Shown here: positions 3,667 to 45,010 of the stretch, piece after piece
Position numbering within the stretch: the stretch's first letter is position 1
How the letters are laid out: each line of letters begins with the position of its first letter
Source of the DNA: a virus
DNA: 64,000 bases
Direction: 5' to 3' (one strand)
IMG/VR virus record: IMGVR_UViG_3300045988_095676
Span: 26,969-90,968 of that record
Translations under genes and position numbers: made by a program
Notes under the pieces: model-generated
Databases searched by the model: none
Told to the model about the DNA's origin: nothing
What the model saw: only the letters and a program-made list of their open reading frames with translations

Positions 3667-4323
3667 TCACTTCATTACTGTCCTTACCAACTTAGAAACA
3701 GCTTGTGTGATAGTCCACCTGATGTTAGCATTAACATTGATAGTCTGAGGAGTACCGTTTGCATCCAAGTTGATTACCTCCTTGTCTATTTCCAAGAACG
3801 GATCACCTGCTGTCTGGGTAATAACCGTATTAGCTGTCTGACCACCGGCGGCCGTCACCTTAAGAGTATTTACCAGATCATTTACATCAGCGTTTTCTGG
3901 AATACCGGAGAATACGATACTGAAAGCAAATCCCCCTGTTGCACCAGGGTCGTCGGCAATAACAGCACCGTTATTGGTAGCCTTGCCTGCTGCCTGATAG
4001 GAGGCTGGTATTTCCAGCGTCAGAGGATGAGACTCGTCTGGAGTTAAGGAGAACGTTAATTTAGTTGAGTTACTTGTGCCGTTGATTGTTACAGTACCAC
4101 CTTCTTTCCCTACAGATGCAGTAGGATCTATTTTTACGAACTCAGCTACCGGAGCTTGGTTTATGGTAGCACTTTTCTTAACATCCCCGGATTCGGCACC
4201 AAATTCTACTTGTAACGTACGCTGTACACGACCTTCGTATTTTTCACCTGATACGGTAACTGCCTGATCACCGTCACCTGATCCCGGATTGAAGGTTACA
4301 AAACCTATTTTCATTTCTGCCAT
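3667..4323 (-). CDS. Ig-like (BACON/Big-like) repeat surface or virion-decoration protein
   Basis: Thr/Gly/Asn-rich beta-strand repeats (GDQAVTVSG, GGTVTINGTSN, GTPQTINVNANIRWTI) resemble Bacteroidetes BACON/Ig modules. It is the only - strand gene in the first 54 kb. Confidence 0.45.
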   Translation of the reverse strand: MAEMKIGFVTFNPGSGDGDQAVTVSGEKYEGRVQRTLQVEFGAESGDVKKSATINQAPVAEFVKIDPTASVGKEGGTVTINGTSNSTKLTFSLTPDESHPLTLEIPASYQAAGKATNNGAVIADDPGATGGFAFSIVFSGIPENADVNDLVNTLKVTAAGGQTANTVITQTAGDPFLEIDKEVINLDANGTPQTINVNANIRWTITQAVSKLVRTVMK

Positions 4324-6936: not shown

Positions 6937-7858
6937 ATCGGATTTAGATGGCGTTGTATCGGCAGCCATCGCAACCATGTACGAAAACAGTAAAAACAAG
7001 GATGTTGTTTATATCCCGTATTCGTATGAAGATGATGTTAAGAAAGTTGTTGACCAAGTACGTGACTTAGATGTTGTTTATGTTCTTGACGTGTCTTTTG
7101 GAGCCGATTCTAAAACTGTTTTCAAAAAGTGGCTTGATGAAGGGAAGAGCCTGATGTGGATAGATCACCACAAGGGAATTATTGAGGACAGTAAGACATG
7201 GGGGTTCGTAGTTCCAGGGTTGAGGAGGGTCGGTGTCGGTGCGTGCGCTCTGGCTTCGGACCTGCTTATGGGGAAGGTGCCGGCGATCGTCCGATGCCTG
7301 TCAGACTACGATGTGTGGAATAAAGAATCTGGCTTAGGCTGGGATACGGTAGTAGCTGTCCAGTATGCCTTGAGATCAAAAATAAGACTCAATGTATTGA
7401 TTGCATTGTCGTATTTATATGATCACTTTAAAGAAAACATGAAAGACAATGAAATTGATCTTATTTTTTATGATCTTGCTAAAGAAGGACGTGCTATAAT
7501 TAATTACATGGCTTGTAAAAACGAAGATGAGGTAAGTAGGTACTCGTTCGAAGCTTACGTCGACGAGGTTAAGGTTATGGCTATGAATACCGCTGAATTT
7601 AGCTCTAAGGTATTTGATTCTCTTACACCGGACTGGTTAGACGGTAGAAAAATTAAAGCCCTGATGCCATTTTGTATCATGCCATGTGGAAAAGTTAGGT
7701 TCTCTCTTTACGAATGCGTAGAAGACAGCGTAGATTGCTGTGAGGTAAGTAAGAGATTCGGTGGTGGAGGACATGCTGGTGCTGCTGGATTCGTTATAGA
7801 CGTATCAAGTGACCAGTTTAAGGACTTCCTTGAAAGTAAAAAACTTTTATCGAAATGA
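6902..7858 (+). CDS. DHH/DHHA1-family phosphoesterase (NrnA/RecJ-like)
   Basis: Motifs HKSDLDGV, DVSF, WIDHHKG (DHH) and GGGGHAGAAGF (DHHA1 GGGH). Confidence 0.8.
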   Translation: MKVKKTAIVYHKSDLDGVVSAAIATMYENSKNKDVVYIPYSYEDDVKKVVDQVRDLDVVYVLDVSFGADSKTVFKKWLDEGKSLMWIDHHKGIIEDSKTWGFVVPGLRRVGVGACALASDLLMGKVPAIVRCLSDYDVWNKESGLGWDTVVAVQYALRSKIRLNVLIALSYLYDHFKENMKDNEIDLIFYDLAKEGRAIINYMACKNEDEVSRYSFEAYVDEVKVMAMNTAEFSSKVFDSLTPDWLDGRKIKALMPFCIMPCGKVRFSLYECVEDSVDCCEVSKRFGGGGHAGAAGFVIDVSSDQFKDFLESKKLLSK

Positions 7859-8226
7859 AGCGTGAATTATATCAGTTCTATCCGGAAGTCTATCCTTTTA
7901 ATCTGTGGATATACGTAGGAAAAGATGTATCTGGCATGGTAGAATGTTTCAATAACGATTTTAGTTACGTAGATAATAGCAAGGCTGTAACTGTATCCGT
8001 TCCATACGGAGGGTGTAAATTAAATCCTAATACGGGATTTTTGATATGGTTTCTTAATAAGAAAATAATTGATTTTGAAACAGTTTGCCATGAAGCATCC
8101 CATGTTTCTACTGAAGCTTTTAATTTCTTAGGAGAAGAAGTAAAAAACTTCAGAACCATTCTCGTATCTCAATGGATGGATAGGGAGAAAGTGCGAGGAA
8201 GTAAAGATCGGAATAGCCGAAGATAA
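7855..8226 (+). CDS. small protein with HExxH motif (possible minimal zinc metallopeptidase)
   Basis: CHEASHVSTEA contains HEASH. ATGA overlap with the DHH gene. The functional call is weak. Confidence 0.4.
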   Translation: MKRELYQFYPEVYPFNLWIYVGKDVSGMVECFNNDFSYVDNSKAVTVSVPYGGCKLNPNTGFLIWFLNKKIIDFETVCHEASHVSTEAFNFLGEEVKNFRTILVSQWMDREKVRGSKDRNSRR

Positions 8227-8267
8227 ACTAATATGGGAAAGTAAATAATTACCGTCGTAAAATAAGT

Positions 8268-8300
8268 ATGGGGAACTTTGGATAGGTTCCCCATATTTTT
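8268..8300 (+). terminator. intrinsic terminator
   Basis: 9-bp stem atggggaac/gttccccat, loop tttggatag, then ATTTTT. Confidence 0.7.
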
Positions 8301-8380
8301 ATGTGATGAGGGAGAGGAATGGTGAAATGTTTATGTGATGGGAGAGATATGAGAAAGAGGTTTATGTGATGGGAGAGAGG
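8299..8380 (+). repeat. three direct repeats TTATGTGATGrGrGAGAG (iteron-like)
   Basis: Copies at 8299-8317, 8331-8347 and 8362-8380, with period 31-32 bp. Confidence 0.8.
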
Positions 8381-8408
8381 GGGTACCTATCACGAACCTC
8401 CCGCCCCC

Positions 8409-8463
8409 GAAACGCGTTTTCTCCCCCGCACCCCCCTTCGCTGGAAAACCGGAAACGCGTTTT
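8409..8463. repeat. two copies of palindromic GAAACGCGTTTT embedded in C-runs
   Basis: Copies at 8409-8420 and 8452-8463. C-runs at 8400-02, 8404-08, 8423-27 and 8431-36. Confidence 0.8.
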
Positions 8464-8474
8464 ACCTCAAACCC

Positions 8475-8520
8475 ACAAACTCTCTGATTATCAATCACTT
8501 ATTTAAATTATTGATAATCA
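8475..8520. repeat. 11-bp perfect inverted repeat TGATTATCAAT / ATTGATAATCA
   Basis: Arms at 8475-8485 and 8510-8520. Related TGATWATCA copies near 8540 and 8623. Confidence 0.8.
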
Positions 8521-8705
8521 ATGTGTTATTATAACATATTGATTATAAGCCACTTAAATAAGCATATATCCTACATATTAATGTACGCGTATAACACTGC
8601 TCTCGTTCGTTTTATAACTTTCTGATAATCAGATAATATAATCGAAATTAATACAAATTAACAAAAAAAAGATATCATATATATTTGTAGTATTGATAAA
8701 TGTCG

Positions 8706-8713
8706 TATATTTG
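8706..8713 (+). promoter_or_regulatory. -7 promoter box TATATTTG (second copy at 8680-8687)
   Basis: Matches TAnnTTTG. It is followed by the hairpin cgtgatc-gagaga-gatcacg. Confidence 0.4.
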
Positions 8714-8858
8714 CGTCGTGATCGAGAGAGATCACGAGTTAACATAGTGAACCTATATAGTGTACCCGTTGGGCTAACTATATATGTATCTGTAATTGCC
8801 TGCGTTGTGGGTCATTAATTTGAATATCATTTGTTTAACAATTAAAATATATTGGGAT

Positions 8859-9398
8859 ATGATTACGAAAAAAAATGTAAACAAACTACAGAATGCCGTT
8901 ATCAAAGAAAATGCTGCAAATTTGGTAGGTGCTGTTAAACTGTACAACGCTCTATTTGCTAATGGAGCTGATCTAAAGGCTATTTGCAAGGCTTTGGAAA
9001 TACCGGCAGAATACGCCGTAAAGGTTGCAGCCCTCGCCAAGGATAAAAAACGCCTGGTAGCCGTGTGTAGCCAAATGTTACCGAAAGTTGATAATACCTT
9101 TGTTAAATTTGCTTTATACTCTAAAGTATATAAGGATACCAATGCGGACAAAGAAAAAGGAATTGAAGCTAAAACGGCTGATTGGTGCGCTGAGAATGTG
9201 GTTTACGGTAGCGAATATAAAGCATTTGGTTTTACTACTGCCGAATCATTGGAGAATAAAAAAAGTACTAAATGGTTGGTAAAAGAAACCGACGAGTACA
9301 AATCTACTTATGTGGCTGTTAAGATCAAATCTTATTCTATTCGCACTGTGGCAAAGTGTGTAAGTGAATACCTCGCACATGAAAGCAACCAGCAGTAA
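8859..9398 (+). CDS. hypothetical protein
   Basis: ATG 8859 inside ORF 8796..9398, preceded by the 19-nt element TGTTTAACAATTAAAATAT. Isolated between two long non-coding regions. Confidence 0.6.
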   Translation: MITKKNVNKLQNAVIKENAANLVGAVKLYNALFANGADLKAICKALEIPAEYAVKVAALAKDKKRLVAVCSQMLPKVDNTFVKFALYSKVYKDTNADKEKGIEAKTADWCAENVVYGSEYKAFGFTTAESLENKKSTKWLVKETDEYKSTYVAVKIKSYSIRTVAKCVSEYLAHESNQQ

Positions 9399-9960
9399 CA
9401 AGGCACGGAGAGCGCCGTTAAGCTCTCCAAAGGTTTGACGCGTACCGTTAAACGCGTCTGTACGCCGTTGTCAGTGGGTGCACGTCCCGCGTATGCTTTA
9501 GACTGAAGCTGACAAAACAGAGAGTTATTTTACATATTGGAGATAGATATACCGGTATCGAGGCCGTTGGCAATTAAAAATACGGTATTGCTGCATGAAC
9601 TGCACTAAATAAGTGTGGTTTATGTTAGGTATGTTAGTACAGTTTGGAAAACATACCGTTGTACGCGGTTTATCTCCAGACCGAAACGTGTCTTACTTGC
9701 CTACACGTAAAATAGGACAAGGCTGTAGATTAAATTACAGGGTATAAACATGTAGCCTACCATGTAGGAGCGTGATATATCAAAGCGCAAGGACACAATC
9801 GCCTTTATTTGTGGCTAAGTTGTGTAGCAGACGGAAAATATAATAACAACATAGTACGAGCCTGTACGCAAGAACTACGTACTAATTACGGGCTGTTGGT
9901 TGTAGCATAAAATCTCTATAGGATAGGAATGCGTGTCCGGTTCGATTCCGGAGCAACCTC
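9399..9960 (+). ncRNA. candidate large structured non-coding RNA ending in a tRNA/tmRNA-like T-arm
   Basis: No ORF. Many local hairpins, five CCGTTR motifs, an 8-bp long-range pairing (9538-45 with 9671-78) and a 3' end tccgg-ttcgatt-ccgga-gcaacc. Confidence 0.35.
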
Positions 9961-9983
9961 TAAATTATAAATAATATAATAGC

Positions 9984-10154
9984 ATGGAAAAGAAAGCAAT
10001 GATCAACGCTTTAATTGAAGCGTTCAATAAATCTAAAAACAGTTGCGTAAAAATAACATTGCGTAACTATATCGAGACGGTGGAAACATTGAGCGAAAGT
10101 GAGTACAAAGAGGCGGAAGGTTTCTATATCGAAGCACTTAACCGCTGGAGTTAA
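9984..10154 (+). CDS. hypothetical protein (56 aa, below the ORF-track cutoff)
   Basis: Hand-translated ATG..TAA ORF MEKKAMINALIEAF...NRWS. Confidence 0.45.
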   Translation: MEKKAMINALIEAFNKSKNSCVKITLRNYIETVETLSESEYKEAEGFYIEALNRWS

Positions 10155-10176: not shown

Positions 10177-10383
10177 ATGGAAAGGAAATTTAAATCTTAT
10201 ATGGTAGACGTCCGCGGTCTGTCCAGGAAAGAAGCTAAAGAAAAGCGGAAAAGAGCGTATCGGGAATTTATGTTGTATCGTGATCTCAAAGAAGCGTATC
10301 ATGCCGATACAGGAAAGGACAAATGCAAACGTAAAGTCCATACATCACGAACATACGTGAAAGAAAACATAAACAGTATTTAA
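10177..10383 (+). CDS. small basic hypothetical protein
   Basis: ORF track, followed directly by a strong terminator. Confidence 0.55.
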   Translation: MERKFKSYMVDVRGLSRKEAKEKRKRAYREFMLYRDLKEAYHADTGKDKCKRKVHTSRTYVKENINSI

Positions 10384-10391
10384 ATAGGGAT

Positions 10392-10426
10392 AGGGTTGTT
10401 CCGAATATCGGAGCAGCCCTATTTTT
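10392..10426 (+). terminator. intrinsic terminator
   Basis: 12-bp stem agggttgttccg/cggagcagccct (two G-T pairs), 5-nt loop, then ATTTTT. Confidence 0.75.
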
Positions 10427-10488
10427 GTATCCTACTCTTTCTATTTACGGGTAGGATATTCTGAGAGTGAACGGCGGATGTAAGCTAT

Positions 10489-10581
10489 ATTGGTCTAAAA
10501 CGAAACTAAAATATGAGAGTTTGGATACAATGCCGGTATTTTGTCTATATCATGTCGTTGAAATTGGTCTAAAACGAAACT
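10489..10581 (+). repeat. 19-bp perfect direct repeat ATTGGTCTAAAACGAAACT, two copies
   Basis: Copies at 10489-10507 and 10563-10581 (74-bp period). Confidence 0.85.
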
Positions 10582-10583
10582 TT

Positions 10584-10629
10584 AGGCGGTTTTCTGACCC
10601 AAAATAGGGCGTCGGATGCCGCCTTTTTC
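10584..10629 (+). terminator. terminator-like hairpin with internal sub-hairpin
   Basis: aggcgg...ccgcct stem enclosing ccc-aaaata-ggg, followed by TTTTC. Confidence 0.5.
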
Positions 10630-10754
10630 GTCTCTATGGATTGAAAATTAGGCTTATTGTACTTTTCTTAAAAATAAGGTATGCTTGATTATCAATTAGT
10701 TAGGTTTTATGATACCCGTATTTTCGGACACACTTATTGTAAATTTTTTATTTT

Positions 10755-10922
10755 ATGTGGTGGTTTTTATTAGTAGCTGACCTGTATTTTTTATCGGTTG
10801 GAGTAAGGTCTATGTTGGAGTACGGACCGGATCAGTATAATATTGTAATGGTCTTTTGCTTTTCTTTATTGGCTTTGATTATAGGCTTAAATATCTATCT
10901 TGATAGGAGGAGCAGGCGGTAG
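10755..10922 (+). CDS. small membrane protein (55 aa, two hydrophobic helices)
   Basis: Hand-translated MWWFLLVADLYFL...LALIIGLNIYLDRRSRR, TAG stop. Below the ORF-track cutoff. Confidence 0.4.
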   Translation: MWWFLLVADLYFLSVGVRSMLEYGPDQYNIVMVFCFSLLALIIGLNIYLDRRSRR

Positions 10923-11110
10923 GGCGTGGGCTGAAGGCTCTCTATTCTCTCTATGGAATGATATTATCTCTAAATACCCCATACTTCATGCCAGAGTATA
11001 AGCTTGTAGCGCTCTCCGTATGCCGGTAGTGAGGCCGAGAGCGCAGGTTCTATGCGGAAAGCCGGAGGATTAGCCGGGGTTGGAGAGGGGGAGAGGGAGG
11101 GCACTCCCTA

Positions 11111-11250
11111 CCAACAAAATTCAATAGATAAGCGTTTTAAAACAGTGTTCTGTAGATCATTTCCACAAAATTCAATATGATAAGGGTTTAAAACAGCATT
11201 ATATAGGTTCCTTCCAACAGATTAAGGGTTGAGGACTGCATTATGTGAGT
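11111..11250 (+). repeat. three imperfect tandem repeats (core ATWAAGSGTTTAAAACAG..TAG), period about 52 then 42 bp
   Basis: Cores start at 11128, 11180 and 11222. The first two units also share ACAAAATTCAATA. Confidence 0.7.
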
Positions 11251-11285
11251 ATTTTTTTTTAAGCGGGATGTTTAACAATTAAAAT

Positions 11286-26903: not shown

Positions 26904-27371
26904 ATGGGATTAACCTATAAAACAAAATTGCTTATGAAAACATTAGAACAACTTAAAGAATTAACATCAAAATGTTTAGACGGTAGAGATTTTAACAGAC
27001 TGGCTAAATTTGTTCCATATAGCATGATAAAGGATTTCGGTATGGAGCCGAATGAAGAATATGACAACGAGGAAAAGTGGAACAGTACTGTAGTTGAATT
27101 TACCAGAGAAAATGTCCTGAAACAGCTTGAAGAAGACGTAAGATTCGGTTTTGAAAAGGCATTAAATCAGAGAGGAATATCAGCCAGTTTGATGTTTGAA
27201 TGTGTGATGATGTGGAACTACATTCTGGAAGAAGGTCTTGAAGGCTGGGGTGAGGATGATTATGCATTTTATGGACTCCCTCTATTTAAAGCTACGGCTG
27301 TAAAATATGGATGGGACAATCCGATAGGGGAAGACAGCGGGAGAGAAAGAAAATATGATTCACAATATTAA
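26904..27371 (+). CDS. hypothetical protein
   Basis: ORF track. An alternative ATG at 26934 is possible. Confidence 0.6.
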   Translation: MGLTYKTKLLMKTLEQLKELTSKCLDGRDFNRLAKFVPYSMIKDFGMEPNEEYDNEEKWNSTVVEFTRENVLKQLEEDVRFGFEKALNQRGISASLMFECVMMWNYILEEGLEGWGEDDYAFYGLPLFKATAVKYGWDNPIGEDSGRERKYDSQY

Positions 27372-38379: not shown

Positions 38380-38658
38380 ATGGGCAGATCAACAGAGTAC
38401 TACAGGACTCATCCAGAAGCCAGGAAGAAAAAGGCTAAAAAGGACAAGGAGATAAATGCCAGACCGGAACAGAAAGCCAAACGCCGGGAGCTTGGTCGTA
38501 AAAACTACGAAACGGACAAGAAGAAGGGCAAGGGCTGGAGGAAAGGCAAGGATTGTTCTCATACCAAGAACGGTCTTAGGTATAAATCAGTAAAAGCTAA
38601 TAGGGGATCCAAGTCGGATACGAAAGGTGACAAAAATGCAAGAGGAGATAGCAAATAG
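38380..38658 (+). CDS. highly basic Lys/Arg-rich protein
   Basis: ORF track. About one residue in three is K or R. Confidence 0.55.
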   Translation: MGRSTEYYRTHPEARKKKAKKDKEINARPEQKAKRRELGRKNYETDKKKGKGWRKGKDCSHTKNGLRYKSVKANRGSKSDTKGDKNARGDSK

Positions 38659-39736
38659 GATAGATATAAGAAGGATATTCAAGACCTCTAAACAAGTTAT
38701 GGAAGAGGCGTATGAGAATATCTTGAAATACAGGCGGGGAGAGCTTATCCCCGCTAAAACCGGATACGATTATATTGATGAGGCTTTGCTTGGAGGTATT
38801 TTCCCTCAGCATGCTATTGCCATAGGAGCCCGGCCATCTGTAGGTAAATCGTATGTGGCCCAAAAGATATTGGAAAATGTGATGAATCCGATGATCAACC
38901 CGCAAGCAGAAGATTATTTTCTTGTTAATTGCGAGTTCGAAATGAATCCTCAAGATCTTCTTCTTCGTAGAATGAGCCAGGATATGAAAAAGCGGGCTCC
39001 TGAAATATTAAGAAGGCAAGATTCTAATACAGTAGAAGAGATGAGGATGTTTGAAATCCTTCAAGGTGAAATCAGAAATAATATAATATACATCGATGCT
39101 CCGTGTACGGTAAAAGAGTTTGAGGCGGCTGTGTATCATATAGCTACCAAACATAAAGACAAACGTCTTATAATATTTAAAGTCGATCATATTGCTTTGA
39201 TAAAAAGAATGGGATTAGATCCTAAGTCGGCTATAGATGATTTGGTGGCGGTTATGAATGAGGCTAAATTAGTATATAAAAACATATTTTTCCTCATCAT
39301 ATCCCAATTCAACAGAGAGATAGAAGGAAGGATAAAAAGTCCACAAGAGCAGCCTCCGCGTCTTTCTGATTTTTACCAATCTGATACACTGGGTCAGTTA
39401 TGTACGTTAATGATAGGTTTGCATAATCCTCGTCGGTACGGGCTGGATAAGTATATGATATTTGGGAAAGACTGGTATCAGACTCTTGATCGGTTTAAAA
39501 CTGAAAACAAAACATCATTCAGAACAGCCGGACTGGTGTTTCATCATATACTGAAAGTAAGGCAGGTTAGCATGGAAGAGCTTACTAACACAATCCACCC
39601 AGAGATTCTGCCAGGACATGGATGGATGTACGGGGAGGGCGGGACGAAGTTCGTGAATCCCAACCAGCCGCCGACGCCGCCCAAGCTCTATACTGTGGAA
39701 GACGTTACGGATAATCAAGAACAGTCAGTATATTAA
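38627..39736 (+). CDS. DnaB-like replicative helicase (RecA-like C-terminal domain only)
   Basis: Walker A GARPSVGKS, Walker B-like IFKVDHIALI, SQFNREIE. No DnaB N-terminal domain. Confidence 0.75.
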   Translation: MTKMQEEIANRIDIRRIFKTSKQVMEEAYENILKYRRGELIPAKTGYDYIDEALLGGIFPQHAIAIGARPSVGKSYVAQKILENVMNPMINPQAEDYFLVNCEFEMNPQDLLLRRMSQDMKKRAPEILRRQDSNTVEEMRMFEILQGEIRNNIIYIDAPCTVKEFEAAVYHIATKHKDKRLIIFKVDHIALIKRMGLDPKSAIDDLVAVMNEAKLVYKNIFFLIISQFNREIEGRIKSPQEQPPRLSDFYQSDTLGQLCTLMIGLHNPRRYGLDKYMIFGKDWYQTLDRFKTENKTSFRTAGLVFHHILKVRQVSMEELTNTIHPEILPGHGWMYGEGGTKFVNPNQPPTPPKLYTVEDVTDNQEQSVY

Positions 39737-39742
39737 AAAGGT

Positions 39743-41008
39743 AATAAAATTGAAATTTCAAATAGTAAAATTGATTGATGAGATTGGTTGAAAAACATAT
39801 TATTAAAGATAACAGATTTGAAGATATTTGCCTCAAATCAGGATTGCTATATAATTATGTCTTGTATAATGCGCGTAAAGGTATCTTCAATAAAGAATAT
39901 CTGAATGAATATGAATTTTCAACCAAACTTTGTAGAGAAAATCAATTTGATTTCAGGAATTTGCCCACTTCTGTTTCTCAACAAGTAGTTGGCCAAGTTT
40001 TTAAAAATATAAAATCATGGATTAGACTCAAGAAGGATTTTGAAAACAATCCTTCCAAATACGATAATTGTTGTCCTCATCTACCTTCGTACAAGAAAGG
40101 CAAGAAACAGAACATGGTTGTGTTCACAACTTCTGCTTGTAGGCTAAAGAAGGATGGTTGTATTCATTTTGTTAAAAATATAATTCAACCAATTAAAACT
40201 GAAATAGGAGATAGTAAATTATGTCAGGTTAGAATCATTCCACAATCTACATGCTATGTGGTTGAAGTAATTTATGAAAAGAAAGAACATAATCTAAGTC
40301 TTGATAAGGATAATGTTCTTTCGATTGATTTAGGATTGAATAATTTATGTTCATGTATCAGCAATGCCGGATTGGTTCCTTTCATTGTAAACGGGCGGAT
40401 TATGAAATCTTTTAATCAGTGGTACAATAAGAGGAAAGCTAAGTTAATGTCTTATGTTGGAGGTAAGGGTACTTCTGAAAGACTTAGACAGCTAAATAAT
40501 TATAGGAATTTTTGGATAGAAGACTACATCCACAAGGTTAGTCGATATATTGTCAATTATTGTATTACTAACAACATTGGTAGTATCGTAATAGGTTTAA
40601 ATAAAGGATGGAAACAAAAGATTAATCTTGGAAAGAAGATTAATCAAAAGTTTGTTGAAATACCTTTTTCAAGACTTATAGACAAAATATCCTATAAATG
40701 TAAGTTGGTAGGTATCAGCTTTCAAATTAATGAAGAATCCTATACATCAAAGGTTGATCATTTAGCTTTTGAGAAATTAGGGAAGCATGATGTTTACTTA
40801 GGCAAAAGAAAGAAACGTGGATTATTCCAAAGCTCAGTTGGAAAGTTGTTAAATGCGGATATCAATGGAGCTATTGGGATAGGTAGAAAAGTATTCGGTG
40901 ATTCATTTGTAAACATGATAATCGATAGTGGGTTTGCGTTTAACCCGATTAGAGTAAACATTTTGTAATATAGATGTGAATTTAATGAATAAAATTTAAA
41001 ATTTTAAT
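39743..41008 (+). mobile_element. solo tnpB insertion (IS200/IS605-family remnant without tnpA)
   Basis: The tnpB gene is bracketed by imperfect AT-rich direct repeats AATAAAATTgAAAtTT (39743-39763) and AATAAAATTtAAAaTT (40988-41008). It is lower in GC than its neighbours, and there is a palindrome ttgaaatttcaa at the left edge. Confidence 0.5.
39778..40968 (+). CDS. tnpB: TnpB-like RNA-guided-nuclease family protein (OrfB), RuvC triad present, zinc finger absent
   Basis: RuvC-I SIDLGLNN, RuvC-II EESYTSK, RuvC-III NADINGAIGI. There are no CxxC pairs between II and III. Confidence 0.8.
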   Translation: MRLVEKHIIKDNRFEDICLKSGLLYNYVLYNARKGIFNKEYLNEYEFSTKLCRENQFDFRNLPTSVSQQVVGQVFKNIKSWIRLKKDFENNPSKYDNCCPHLPSYKKGKKQNMVVFTTSACRLKKDGCIHFVKNIIQPIKTEIGDSKLCQVRIIPQSTCYVVEVIYEKKEHNLSLDKDNVLSIDLGLNNLCSCISNAGLVPFIVNGRIMKSFNQWYNKRKAKLMSYVGGKGTSERLRQLNNYRNFWIEDYIHKVSRYIVNYCITNNIGSIVIGLNKGWKQKINLGKKINQKFVEIPFSRLIDKISYKCKLVGISFQINEESYTSKVDHLAFEKLGKHDVYLGKRKKRGLFQSSVGKLLNADINGAIGIGRKVFGDSFVNMIIDSGFAFNPIRVNIL

Positions 41009-43309: not shown

Positions 43310-45010
43310 ATGACAACAATTATGTACGTGTCAGCCATCTTAGCTGTAGTGATTATTTTGACAATCATCGGAGTCTTATCAAGGTATCGTAGATGTAAGC
43401 CTAATCAGGTCTTGGTCGTTTACGGTAAGACAGGTGGGGAAAAGAAGTCGGCAAAATTATATCATGGTGGAGCGGCATTTGTCTTGCCTATTATTCAAAG
43501 CTATGATGTTTTGTCTATGGAGCCTATGCAAATAGATTGTAGGCTTACCGGTGCTTTGTCATCTCAGAATATTAGAGTAGATGTGCCTACAACTATTACA
43601 GTAGCTATCAGTACAAATCCTGAAATCATGCAAAATGCAGCAGAAAGACTTTTGGGGATGGATACCGAATCTACTGAAAATCTTATTACAGACATCGTTT
43701 ACGGTCAGATGCGTTTGATTATTGCCGAAATGACAATCGAAAAACTTAATTCTGATAGGGATGAGTTTTTGGATAAGGCAAGAAAAAACATTGATAACGA
43801 ACTTAATAAATTGGGTCTTTATCTTTTGAACATTAACATCAGTGACATCAGAGATGAAGCCGGCTACATCATGAATCTTGGTAAAGAGGCTGAAAGCAAG
43901 GCTCTGAACGAAGCACAGGCTAATATCGAAGAACAGGAAAAGCTGGGTGCTATTAAGATTGCTGTACAACAGAAGGAAAAAGAAACGGCTGTAGCTAATA
44001 CCCAAAAAGAGCAAGAGATTCAAATTGCCTATACTGAAAAAGAAAAAGAAACGGTAGTAGCTGAAACAAAGAAAGAAAAAGAAGTAGCTTTGGCTTTAAC
44101 CGATAAAGAAAAACAGATCGGTGTAGCTCAAGCCGATAGAGATAGGGCTGCGGCTATAGCAAAGACTTTGGCTGACAAGGAATCAGCGATTGCAAGATCT
44201 AAGGCGGAACTTGAAGTAAACAAAGCTGAAGCCGAAAGAATGGAAGAAGTTGGAAAGAATAAAGCTGAAGCTGACAAACAAGCAGCTATAGCAATACAAG
44301 ACTCTGAAGCTCAGATTAAGAAAGCTGAGGCTGAGAAAAATGCTTCTGTAGGCTACAACAATGCCCAGAAAGAGGTTGCTGTATCAGAATCAGAATTGCA
44401 GGTTATCAAAGCTCAATCAGAAAAGAAAGCCGGAGAAGAGAAAGTTAAATCGGAAGCGGCTGTGAAAACGGCAAAAGAGCTTGCTGATAAAGAAGTGGAA
44501 GAAGCTAAAGCTAAGAAGGTTCAAGCTGCGCTTAAAGCTGAAAAGATTGTGCCGGCTGAAATTCAGAAGCAGGAGGCTATGTTGCAAGCTGATGCCGAGG
44601 CCGAGAAGATCAAACGCCGGGCCGATGCTGAAGCAGCAGCACATTTGGCAAAAGCAGAGGCGGAAGCAAAAGCTATTCAGATGAAGCTGGAAGCGGAAGC
44701 CGAAGGTAAGAAAAAGTCGTTGATGGCAGAAGCCGACGGATTTAAGGCTATGGTGGAAGCAGCAGAATCCAATCCTCAGATCGCCATCCAGTACAAGATG
44801 GTTAATCAGTGGAAAGAAATTGCCGGAGAACAGGTTAAGGCATTTGAGCACATTAACCTCGGAAATATCACGGTATTTGACGGCGGTCAGAACAGTACCG
44901 GTAATTTCCTTAACAATGTTGTTAAGACCGTCGCTCCGGCATTGGGAGTCATTGATCAGCTTCCGATTGCAGATACTTTAAAGAAGCTAAAAGGAGATGA
45001 CAAAAAATAA
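43310..45010 (+). CDS. flotillin/YqiK-like SPFH (band 7) domain protein
   Basis: N-terminal TM helix, SPFH-like core (VVYGKTGG...AAFVLPIIQSYDVLSMEP), then a ~250-aa Ala/Glu/Lys-rich coiled coil typical of flotillins. Confidence 0.75.
   Translation: MTTIMYVSAILAVVIILTIIGVLSRYRRCKPNQVLVVYGKTGGEKKSAKLYHGGAAFVLPIIQSYDVLSMEPMQIDCRLTGALSSQNIRVDVPTTITVAISTNPEIMQNAAERLLGMDTESTENLITDIVYGQMRLIIAEMTIEKLNSDRDEFLDKARKNIDNELNKLGLYLLNINISDIRDEAGYIMNLGKEAESKALNEAQANIEEQEKLGAIKIAVQQKEKETAVANTQKEQEIQIAYTEKEKETVVAETKKEKEVALALTDKEKQIGVAQADRDRAAAIAKTLADKESAIARSKAELEVNKAEAERMEEVGKNKAEADKQAAIAIQDSEAQIKKAEAEKNASVGYNNAQKEVAVSESELQVIKAQSEKKAGEEKVKSEAAVKTAKELADKEVEEAKAKKVQAALKAEKIVPAEIQKQEAMLQADAEAEKIKRRADAEAAAHLAKAEAEAKAIQMKLEAEAEGKKKSLMAEADGFKAMVEAAESNPQIAIQYKMVNQWKEIAGEQVKAFEHINLGNITVFDGGQNSTGNFLNNVVKTVAPALGVIDQLPIADTLKKLKGDDKK

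Follow-up and report, generated by a model that had tools for sequence, protein, structure and literature searches.

The stretch of viral DNA analysed here, referred to as the window, comprises 64,000 nucleotides (nt) and corresponds to positions 26,969 to 90,968 of the IMG/VR virus record IMGVR_UViG_3300045988_095676. Between the gene for a 179-amino-acid (aa) protein and the next small open reading frame (ORF) lies a region that a first-pass annotation, made from the letters alone, had described as about 560 nt without ORFs and dense in hairpins. The largest ORF in 9399-9983 is indeed only 44 aa long, and this segment almost certainly specifies a conserved structured non-coding RNA (ncRNA). 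Its + strand at 9437-9959 is best read, from comparison of homologous sequences, as encoding a new family of large, ornate ncRNA with multiple pseudoknots. The RNA would be approximately 523 nt long, with a body of approximately 460 nt followed by a module resembling transfer RNA (tRNA); in genomes with an optional hairpin termed P0, it begins at 9403 rather than at 9437.

Conservation of the locus and evidence for an RNA

The annotated phage collection contains a single relative, csAssE-Sib (OR575929.1, human gut, 151 kb), which is 86% identical to the window over the region; no literature was found under this phage name. Exact-pattern and protein-anchored scans of IMG/VR identified more than 120 contigs of 80-250 kb that carry the locus. 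The IMG/VR contigs that are 87-100% identical are called the main clade here, sub-clades lie at 79% and 83%, and carriers also occur among Logan and ENA metagenome contigs. A pattern excluding the main clade detected further metagenome members, one of them labelled human gut; another candidate from the metagenome scan, L218, was rejected as a chance match inside a coding region. A first search with the upstream 179-aa protein returned close relatives only, and distant ones were reached by comparing this protein with 50%-identity representatives and fetching the corresponding contigs, while searches of viral contigs with the single distant proteins P0126 and P0131 gave no match. The clusters of the adjacent protein hold up to 2,680 member sequences, and its homologues at 24-45% identity each precede a gene-free gap of 630-780 nt that contains the RNA, with the exception of lineage L156, where the gap measures 310 nt. 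The lineages used were the main clade (including L205 and L179), L148, L220/L223, the L150 group, L155, L149, L147 and L156. The RNA belongs to a clade of approximately 150-kb gut phages.

The pattern of variation across these relatives is that of an RNA. Variability by phase within the region is 0.051/0.061/0.047, with no three-base periodicity, as compared to 0.054/0.014/0.219 by codon position in the adjacent gene, and with a mean site variability of 0.053, the RNA varies less than that gene (0.095). Within the main clade, the longest ORF ranges from 33 to 123 aa, and in the distant lineages it occupies different strands and frames. Approximately 140 base pairs, including those of three pseudoknots, co-vary across at least six phage lineages, among which the sequences of the helices differ almost completely. 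Many of the exchanges are C-G to U-G or fully compensatory when read on the + strand, which favours a + strand transcript and disfavours DNA hairpins. As the folding energy of the single sequence is only modestly unusual (z = -1.72; 1 of 100 shuffles folds as well), the case rests on comparison with relatives.

This comparison was carried out separately for three domains. For the 5' half, 47 main-clade sequences were aligned and not fitted to the structure; 98.3% of the alignment cells are paired, as opposed to 28-50% when the partners are slid by 1-3 columns, and 13 of 66 pairs change on both sides. The central domain was assessed on a plain MAFFT alignment, likewise not fitted, of 18 sequences drawn from three distant lineages as well as the main clade, in which 91.6% of cells are paired (24-43% when slid) and 16 of 45 pairs change on both sides. 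MAFFT across all lineages misaligned the tRNA-like module and the 5' domain, and covariance-model alignment and scripted helix checks were used instead. A covariance model of 9851-9962 built from 25 main-clade sequences matches L148, L150, L155, L167, L196, L217, L220, L222 and L223 at E values of 1e-7 to 1e-12. The resulting 22-sequence alignment of the 3' domain has 97.5% paired cells, somewhat inflated by fitting to the model structure, versus 36-45% when slid, and both sides change in 27 of the 32 pairs. Complete turnover of a helix, such as GGUUGU/GCAACC to AGCAUAC/GUAUGCU, cannot arise as a fitting artefact. Comparative folding with related phages thereby bears out the earlier idea of a large structured RNA: pairs co-vary in all three domains, and no ORF is conserved. 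The individual sequence features listed in the first-pass annotation were found at, or within one base of, the places it had given.

Architecture of the RNA

The elements of the RNA and its two flanking genes are collected in Table 1.

Table 1. Elements of the RNA and flanking genes (window positions; paired strands are separated by a colon).
Feature	Position	Strand	Description
179-aa protein	8859-9398	+	immediately 5' of the RNA in all lineages; context only
P0	9407-9428	+	optional 7-bp hairpin, loop GCCGUUAA, just past the stop codon of the upstream gene
H1	9437-9458	+	7-bp 5' hairpin, loop ACCGUUAA
5' pseudoknot domain	9460-9514	+	H2 9460-65:9489-94; h2a 9476-78:9486-88; pseudoknot PK1 9469-74:9509-14
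Single-stranded block	9523-9537	+	GUUAUUUUACAUAUU; UUUAACAUAG in other lineages
P3 domain	9538-9678	+	11-bp helix 9538-48:9668-78 around arms P3a, P3b and P3c
P3 arms	P3a 9549-9588; P3b 9592-9627; P3c 9629-9656	+	P3c loop RAGUANNGUYNNGAAA conserved
H4/PK2	9686-9721	+	H4 9686-91:9703-08; loop 9696-9702 with 9715-9721 forms pseudoknot PK2
H5, H6	9723-9780	+	H5 9723-28:9735-40; H6 composite, 9742-46:9776-80, 9748-53:9770-75, 9756-60:9764-68
Core	9781-9839	+	UCAAARCGCAAGGA, then H7 9793-99:9819-25 (inner stem 9801-03:9813-15), then AGCAGACGGNAAAU
PK3	9854-9893	+	H-type pseudoknot; helix a 9854-58:9878-82 (GUACG/CGUAC), helix b 9860-66:9887-93 (GCCUGUA/UACGGGC)
tRNA-like module	9897-9959	+	acceptor 9897-9903:9953-59; D-stem 9905-08:9929-32; T-arm 9936-40:9948-52
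68-aa basic protein	10177-10383	+	VDVRGLSRKEAKEKR...; context only

The two back-to-back 7-bp hairpins remarked on in the first-pass annotation are both present, and they differ in standing. The first (GGAGAGC/GCTCTCC, 9407-9413:9422-9428, loop GCCGTTAA) is P0, which behaves as an indel (9403-9431) outside the conserved core, being found in 32 of 57 main-clade sequences and missing from the other 25; where it exists, the pairs 9411:9424 and 9412:9423 co-vary. The second (GACGCGT/ACGCGTC, 9437-9443:9452-9458, loop ACCGTTAA) is H1, with 95% of cells paired and both-side changes at two pairs in the main clade; at the same position, L148, L150, L220, L155, L149, L156 and L147 have a hairpin whose sequence is unrelated. 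Downstream of it, H2 encloses the 5' strand of PK1 together with h2a, a 3-bp hairpin with the 7-nt loop UNCNCGY, and positions 9498-9505 form a conserved linker, U(A/U)GACU(A/G)A. In the main clade, H2 and PK1 are 100% paired and three of the six PK1 pairs change on both sides. Sequence turns over while pairing is kept, as illustrated by UGUCAG/CUGACA, which becomes UGGUAG/CUACCA in L205, GUGCAA/UUGCAC in L150 and L220, and UUAGCA/UGCUAA in L148. Scripted checks recovered the H1/H2/PK1/h2a/P3 layout with unrelated sequences in L205, L148, L220 and L150; equivalents in L149, L155 and L156 were read from the sequences by eye, and L147 is without the H2/PK1 domain.

The block at 9523-9537 is kept in all lineages, including L147 and L156, and no pairing partner was found for it; a pairing of GUUAUU (9525-30) with AAUAAC (9842-47) was rejected because it has no support in L148. 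The adjoining 8-bp long-range pairing of TGGAGATA (9538-45) with TATCTCCA (9671-78), proposed on inspection, is real, co-varies and extends to 11 bp as helix P3. P3 is 99.4% paired in the main clade; its strands have given way to UUUAUAGG/CUUAUAAA in L150 and to UUAUAUAUC/GAUAUAUAA in L148. Within it, four pairs of P3b change on both sides (for example CG in 24 and UA in 23 sequences), the window variant shows a shift of register in part of P3a, and the hairpin noted earlier at 9629/9656 forms between 9629-34 and 9651-56. An early RNAalifold hairpin GCUUUA/UGAAGC (9495-9509) and long-range pairs between 9483-92 and 9785-9834 were both rejected in favour of co-varying alternatives.

In the central domain, three of six H4 pairs and four of seven PK2 pairs change on both sides in the 18-sequence MAFFT alignment. 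H5 is 100% paired with three such pairs and H6 90% with five, the register of H6 being shifted by one nucleotide in L148 and L150. RNAalifold independently recovers H4 to H7. The blocks flanking H7 are invariant in the 18 sequences and are the most conserved part of the RNA, apparently unpaired; RNAalifold proposes a putative closing stem CGC/G-CG that is invariant. Pair 9797:9821 of H7 is AU in 33 and UA in 24 main-clade sequences. Palindromic H5 loops were considered as kissing sites and set aside, since, although found in many lineages, they are missing from others, and chance alone often makes AT-rich loops palindromic. Three lineages (L148, 2190-2330; L150, ~3950-4085; L220) carry an insertion of approximately 130 nt after the second block flanking H7, past GCAGACGGNAAAU, that is absent from the main clade and appears structured, e.g. 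AUAUACCGUUACGGGUAUAG.

A short repeated motif runs through the 5' half. CCGTTR is present in five copies on one strand within 250 nt, where about 0.06 would be expected (32 copies on both strands of the 64-kb window), and the three CCGTTG motifs reported earlier are located at 9465, 9564 and 9656. The five CCGTT(A/G) motifs, all on the + strand at 9415-9661, fall at stem ends or in loops: in those of P0 and H1, at the junction of H2 with PK1, at the tip of P3a and at the 3' end of P3c. These clade-specific motifs are mostly kept in the main clade, and their sites are not shared by the distant lineages. GACGG within the invariant AGCAGACGG is complementary to CCGUU.

The 3' domain joins PK3 to the tRNA-like module. 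The loop of PK3 is conserved (AAGAACUNCG), its helix a is 99.1% paired with both-side changes in three of five pairs, and its helix b is 99.4% paired with such changes in six of seven. PK3 is found in every lineage reaching that far, including L147 (GUCACG/CGUGAC and UCUAUAUC/GAUAUAGG, by scripted check) and L149, in which helix a was identified by script and helix b (GCAUGGU/AUCGUGC) by eye. A single strand of 3-7 nt, always short, leads from PK3 to the acceptor stem. An early RNAalifold pairing of ACAAC (9846-50) with GUUGU (9899-9903) was rejected for the co-varying alternative.

The module measures 63 nt, and the two parts of it that were recognized in the first-pass annotation, the T-arm TCCGG-TTCGATT-CCGGA (9936-9952) and the acceptor GCAACC(T) with (T)GGTTGT at 9897-9903, are both present. 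The intervening 9905-9932, left unassigned at that time, forms a D-arm from GCAT and ATGC, inside which lie a 4-bp hairpin and a conserved GG. Both sides change in all seven acceptor pairs, all four D-stem pairs and four of the five T-stem pairs, which supports the earlier description of a 3' tRNA-like domain that has no anticodon arm. One nucleotide links the acceptor to the D-stem; the nested hairpin of the D-loop (9912-15:9921-24) is variable and dispensable, the GG (9926-27) precedes the 3' strand of the D-stem, and the T-loop reads UUCGAUU. The linker from D-stem to T-stem is GUG in the window and has three nucleotides only (GUG, UAU or GCR) in the main clade, L148, L150, L220 and L155, which leaves no anticodon arm. 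The window and most main-clade genomes have U·U at pair 1:72, so that six standard acceptor pairs remain, and no CCA is encoded. Folded alone, the module adopts three arms in the window, L148 (z = -4.0) and L155 (z = -5.1). With a 7-bp acceptor (U·U at 1:72 in the window), a D-arm with GG and a T-arm with a UUCRANY loop, the end of the RNA is very probably a mimic of the top half of a tRNA. The module is missing in L149, where PK3 is kept and plain hairpins stand at the end, and in L156; in L147, a hairpin resembling a terminator, with a U run, comes after it.

Function of the tRNA-like end and rival explanations

No known family accounts for the RNA. ARAGORN calls only the four true tRNAs at 2283-2645 in the window, and across nine homologous loci it reports neither a tRNA nor a transfer-messenger RNA (tmRNA) where the element lies. 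At gathering thresholds, Rfam 15 returns only the same four tRNAs from the window; at E values up to 10, it gives two noise hits in 9300-10050 and nothing on the RNA in six distant homologous loci, so that none of the 4227 families matches. The families brought up in the first-pass annotation (tmRNA, ROOL, GOLLD, group I introns and RNase P) are thus without a match up to E = 10. Neither RF00005 nor ARAGORN calls the module a tRNA, and the stem and 7-nt loop of an anticodon arm are missing. Fragments of the RNA may be listed among the 10,006 short candidate structured RNAs catalogued from IMG/VR (PMC10690425).

We see about an even chance that the tRNA-like tail is a signal for processing by the host's RNase P, RNase Z and CCA-adding enzyme. 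Since the distant lineages leave no room for a promoter, transcription of the RNA probably accompanies or directly follows that of the 179-aa gene. Host RNase P would cut at the 5' edge of the mimic, at approximately 9896/9897, while RNase Z or exonucleases and the CCA-adding enzyme would act on its 3' edge. The body of approximately 460 nt would thereby be freed from a polycistronic transcript, with a new 3' end 3-7 nt past PK3 and shielded by it, and the same cut would separate the downstream mRNA. With its invariant single-stranded blocks, the body could then work as an RNA-only or RNA-protein particle, as proposed for the ROOL and GOLLD RNAs of other phages. A 7-bp acceptor on a 5-bp T-stem after a single strand of 3-7 nt is a canonical bacterial RNase P substrate, and the predicted fold offers the structural prerequisites for RNase P and RNase Z, namely a 12-bp coaxial stack of acceptor (7) and T-stem (5) with single-stranded leader and trailer. 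In MALAT1-mascRNA and MEN-beta, as in tRNA punctuation, RNase P cutting at a tRNA-like structure forms the 3' end of a large RNA and frees a small by-product. [quoted passage not shown] Islands of tRNA genes are found close to ROOL and GOLLD, and tRNAs may be covalently joined to GOLLD (10.1101/2024.12.08.627333). The position of the module directly after PK3, its absence from L149 and the terminator-like hairpin that follows it in L147 suggest an exchangeable device for 3'-end formation or punctuation, and the module would be dispensable for the body, as expected of such a device.

Several observations weigh against processing as the role of the tail, or against the wider interpretation of the RNA. 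Scans for promoters and terminators were at chance level, the fitting of the 3' alignment favours the pairing it reports, and the main-clade U·U at 1:72 could shift or weaken RNase P cleavage. A D-arm with GG, giving a full elbow, is hardly needed by a mere cleavage signal and hints that the module may act as an attached mimic. Finally, processing leaves the function of the body without explanation.

The strongest competitor, to which we give perhaps one chance in five, builds on this last structural point: the module would stay attached as the business end of the RNA, an anticodon-less mimic docking it onto the tRNA-binding machinery of the host. Its target might be the CCA-adding enzyme, EF-Tu after charging, elbow-binding sites of the ribosome, tRNA-modifying enzymes or a tRNA-sensing defence protein. 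The complete elbow (D-loop GG and UUCGAUU) goes beyond what RNase P needs, the anticodon-less form is kept in four lineages under clear purifying selection, and such an arrangement would have its likeness in the tRNA-like termini of tmRNA, Y RNAs and the genomes of plant viruses; a polynucleotide kinase/3'-phosphatase, a DHH phosphoesterase and the tRNA cluster are encoded 1.5-7 kb upstream. However, a 3-7-nt leader before a 7-bp acceptor is a standard RNase P substrate, for which detachment is expected (PMC4201824), the acceptor differs by lineage (G2-C71/G3-C70 versus G2-C71/C3-G70) and offers no common aminoacylation identity, and L149 and L156 do without the module. A bolder version, which we consider somewhat less probable again, envisages a self-assembling or catalytic phage RNA, possibly acting with the 179-aa and 68-aa proteins, whose permanently attached mimic plugs into host tRNA machinery (ribosome, EF-Tu, CCA enzyme or tRNA-sensing defence); if true, this would be a phage counterpart of the logic of tmRNA and Y RNAs on an unrelated 460-nt core with three pseudoknots.

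A long cis-acting element, either the 3' untranslated region of the 179-aa gene or a leader of the downstream small genes, seems to us improbable, slightly more so than either form of attached mimic. Such an element would agree with the preserved synteny with both flanking genes, with the lack of promoter or terminator signals above chance, and with the tight fit of the RNA in distant lineages, where it begins 1-40 nt past the upstream stop and finishes 20-55 nt before the next start. Against this, 530-650 nt with three pseudoknots, invariant single strands and a tRNA-like end far exceed known bacterial and phage leaders, and the next gene varies among lineages, with an ORF of 56 aa in the window, 96 aa in L148 and 102 aa in L155.

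Descent from ROOL or GOLLD is very unlikely. The RNA has the traits of that type, being large (approximately 500-650 nt) and phage-encoded, with three co-varying pseudoknots, a fused tRNA-like module and a tRNA cluster 6.8 kb upstream, and the loose analogy to large ornate phage RNAs beside tRNAs drawn in the first-pass annotation was apt. Yet, with E values up to 10 allowed, neither covariance model finds a match in seven divergent representatives (the window slice and the six distant loci), no shared motif was seen, and the Rfam hosts are mainly Firmicutes, Actinobacteria or marine, whereas a gut phage with a suggested Bacteroidota host is concerned here.

A divergent phage tmRNA, or another RNA of trans-translation, is more improbable still. 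The order of UAGGAAU, T-arm and acceptor strand, which resembles the 3' end of E. coli tmRNA, had led to this comparison, and there are pseudoknots upstream of the module. The acceptor nevertheless closes locally: its 3' strand at 9953-59 pairs with 9897-9903, its 5' strand lies 50 nt upstream of its partner with co-variation in 7/7 pairs, and it does not pair with the 5' end of the RNA. A 5' partner GGUU (9432-35) was rejected, as it offers 4 bp only, does not co-vary and is missing from L150, and a tmRNA-like 5'-3' closure by an AGCAUAC repeat in L148 is not kept in L150 and was treated as chance. The main clade has G-C at pair 3:70, L148, L150 and L220 have C-G, and the G·U of tmRNA never occurs there; a 4-bp D-stem is present, no tmRNA is called by ARAGORN (window and nine loci) or Rfam (E = 10), and no ORF conserved in frame or strand could supply a tag. 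The stretch TAT GCT TTA GAC TGA, suggested earlier as the end of a YAL-like tag, does exist, one base further on at 9492-9506, and its codons sit in helix H2 and the conserved linker.

As little can be said for a feature of the DNA itself, be it an attP site with the 3' half of a host tRNA, a hairpin-rich origin of replication or packaging, or a decaying tRNA pseudogene by an unrelated spacer: phage attP sites often hold the T-arm and acceptor 3' part of a tRNA and the region is free of ORFs and dense in hairpins, but its 20-nt 3' end GGTTCGATTCCGGAGCAACC has one match in 185,579 representative genomes, in an unrelated actinobacterial (Thermoleophilaceae) metagenome-assembled genome with no tRNA called at the site, both acceptor strands co-vary, the anticodon-less form is kept in four lineages, no integrase was found among the neighbouring genes examined, and the substitutions in long-range and pseudoknotted pairs, which are strand-specific and tolerate G·U, point to RNA rather than DNA. 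Equally implausible is a coding function through short ORFs or an alternative code, for which one could cite the hypothetical 96-aa coding sequence (CDS) WOZ57218.1 annotated in the homologous region of OR575929.1 (556-843; L001 3294-3581): its frame is broken in the window and most relatives, the ORFs of the region are not conserved and change strand and frame, there is no third-position excess, and substitutions in the helices are compensatory, and the CDS is probably spurious.

Genomic setting and comparison with known RNAs

The 179-aa protein has no Pfam or PHROG family, and its AlphaFold2 model (mean predicted local distance difference test score 91) has no fold match in the PDB. Homologues of the 68-aa protein, detected by tblastn, are encoded 30-330 nt 3' of the RNA in L148, L150, L155, L167, L220, L222, L223 and L205; the protein has no Pfam family, is highly basic (…VDVRGLSRKEAKEKRKRAYREF…) and is a candidate RNA-binding partner. 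The synteny of both genes with the RNA makes an RNA-protein complex with the flanking proteins possible. Further upstream lie a dUTPase-like gene, the polynucleotide kinase/3'-phosphatase, the DHH phosphoesterase and the four tRNA genes (2283-2645, +; Met-CAU, Gln-UUG, Arg-CCU and Cys-GCA), none of which encodes CCA, so that the phage depends on a CCA-adding enzyme. The genes of the phage are without Shine-Dalgarno sequences, and together with a TTTG...TATATTGG motif read by eye ahead of the 179-aa gene, this weakly suggests a Bacteroidota host.

Other parts of the window also drew attention. Upstream of the 179-aa gene, 8227-8858 is a second nearly ORF-free stretch, in which the DNA of a patch at approximately 8375-8463 is 76-86% conserved in L148, L150, L167, L222 and L223; many IMG/VR contigs end at approximately 8220-8350, and a 123-aa ORF at 7855-8226 is missing from most relatives. 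Downstream, the approximately 900 nt at 10384-11285 contain only ORFs of 30-55 aa and are 92-96% conserved in the main clade, with no DNA similarity in the distant lineages; L150 and L151 have a gene-free stretch of about 1 kb slightly further downstream, and several contigs end near 11150, where identity is down to 82%. In the replication module, a TnpB-like protein (Pfam OrfB_IS605 and Cas12f1-like TNB; PHROG 506 transposase; 39775-40968, +) adjoins a DnaB-like helicase (38627-39736), and a guide (omega) RNA might lie just downstream of the TnpB-like gene. A 566-aa protein with SPFH/Band-7 and flotillin domains, unusual for a phage, is encoded at 43310-45010 (+).

Bacterial and phage RNAs of more than 400 nt with complex conserved structure are rare (ribosomal RNAs, RNase P, tmRNA, group I/II introns, OLE, GOLLD, ROOL, HEARO and raiA are examples), and each new one has led to new biochemistry or, lately, to unexpected RNA-only assemblies. 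To our knowledge, there is no earlier description of an architecture that combines three co-varying pseudoknots, invariant single strands and a fused tRNA top half that has lost its anticodon arm. The present RNA, whose host phage turns up in many human-gut datasets, may provide a new target for cryo-electron microscopy and ribozyme screening, and a compact natural test of how tRNA-processing enzymes are recruited for the maturation of large phage RNAs, which is a suspected, unproven reason for ROOL and GOLLD adjoining tRNAs. It also implies a probable database correction, namely the removal of a spurious CDS inside the RNA in OR575929.1.

Among known systems, YrlA-type Y RNAs share the principle of an ncRNA bearing a tRNA-like domain of acceptor-like, D and T arms. 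They are approximately 100-150 nt long, have a Ro60/Rsr-binding stem and are encoded beside rsr, while the module described here sits on a 460-nt body with three pseudoknots. There is no Rfam Y-RNA match, the ORFs scanned include neither Ro60 nor RtcB, and no TROVE/Ro60 domain was found among the 30 ORFs, part of those in the window, that were scanned against Pfam; GACCGAAACG at 9679-88 does not fit the Rsr motif GNCGAAN0-1G and varies (GAUCGAA, GUUCGGGA). As in MALAT1-mascRNA, a tRNA-like structure stands directly past a structured 3' element, which is an analogy only, given that MALAT1 and MEN-beta are eukaryotic nuclear RNAs protected by a triple helix in place of an H-type pseudoknot. The 3' ends of plant viruses such as tobacco mosaic virus and brome mosaic virus likewise consist of a series of pseudoknots and a terminal tRNA mimic; these are genomes of RNA viruses with a pseudoknotted, aminoacylatable acceptor, as opposed to a plain acceptor stem in the transcript of a DNA phage, and the sole Rfam match to a family of this type is noise (E = 9.7, minus strand). 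RNAC and RNAD of phage T4 have tRNA-like termini, and are much smaller (approximately 120-140 nt) and not ornate. They are stable RNAs of the phage's tRNA region, transcribed and processed along with tRNAs, and have no known role (PMC3014915).

The tRNA-like domain of tmRNA is comparable in that a canonical T-loop arm stands beside the acceptor 3' strand, no anticodon arm is present and pseudoknots lie elsewhere in the molecule. Unlike tmRNA, the module is a self-contained 63-nt 3' unit with a true 4-bp D-stem, and no P2 helix replaces the anticodon arm. From ROOL (RF03087) and GOLLD (RF01998), the RNA differs in its carriers, a clade of approximately 150-kb human-gut phages, and in that its appended element is not a functional tRNA but an anticodon-arm-less mimic fused to the 3' end. 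Like ROOL and GOLLD, its closest analogues, it has no known protein partner or function, and it shares with them a phage origin, a length within 500-800 nt, an elaborate fold with several pseudoknots and an association with tRNA. It is the fused anticodon-less tRNA mimic, in a family absent from Rfam 15, that is new among the large ornate tRNA-associated phage RNAs.

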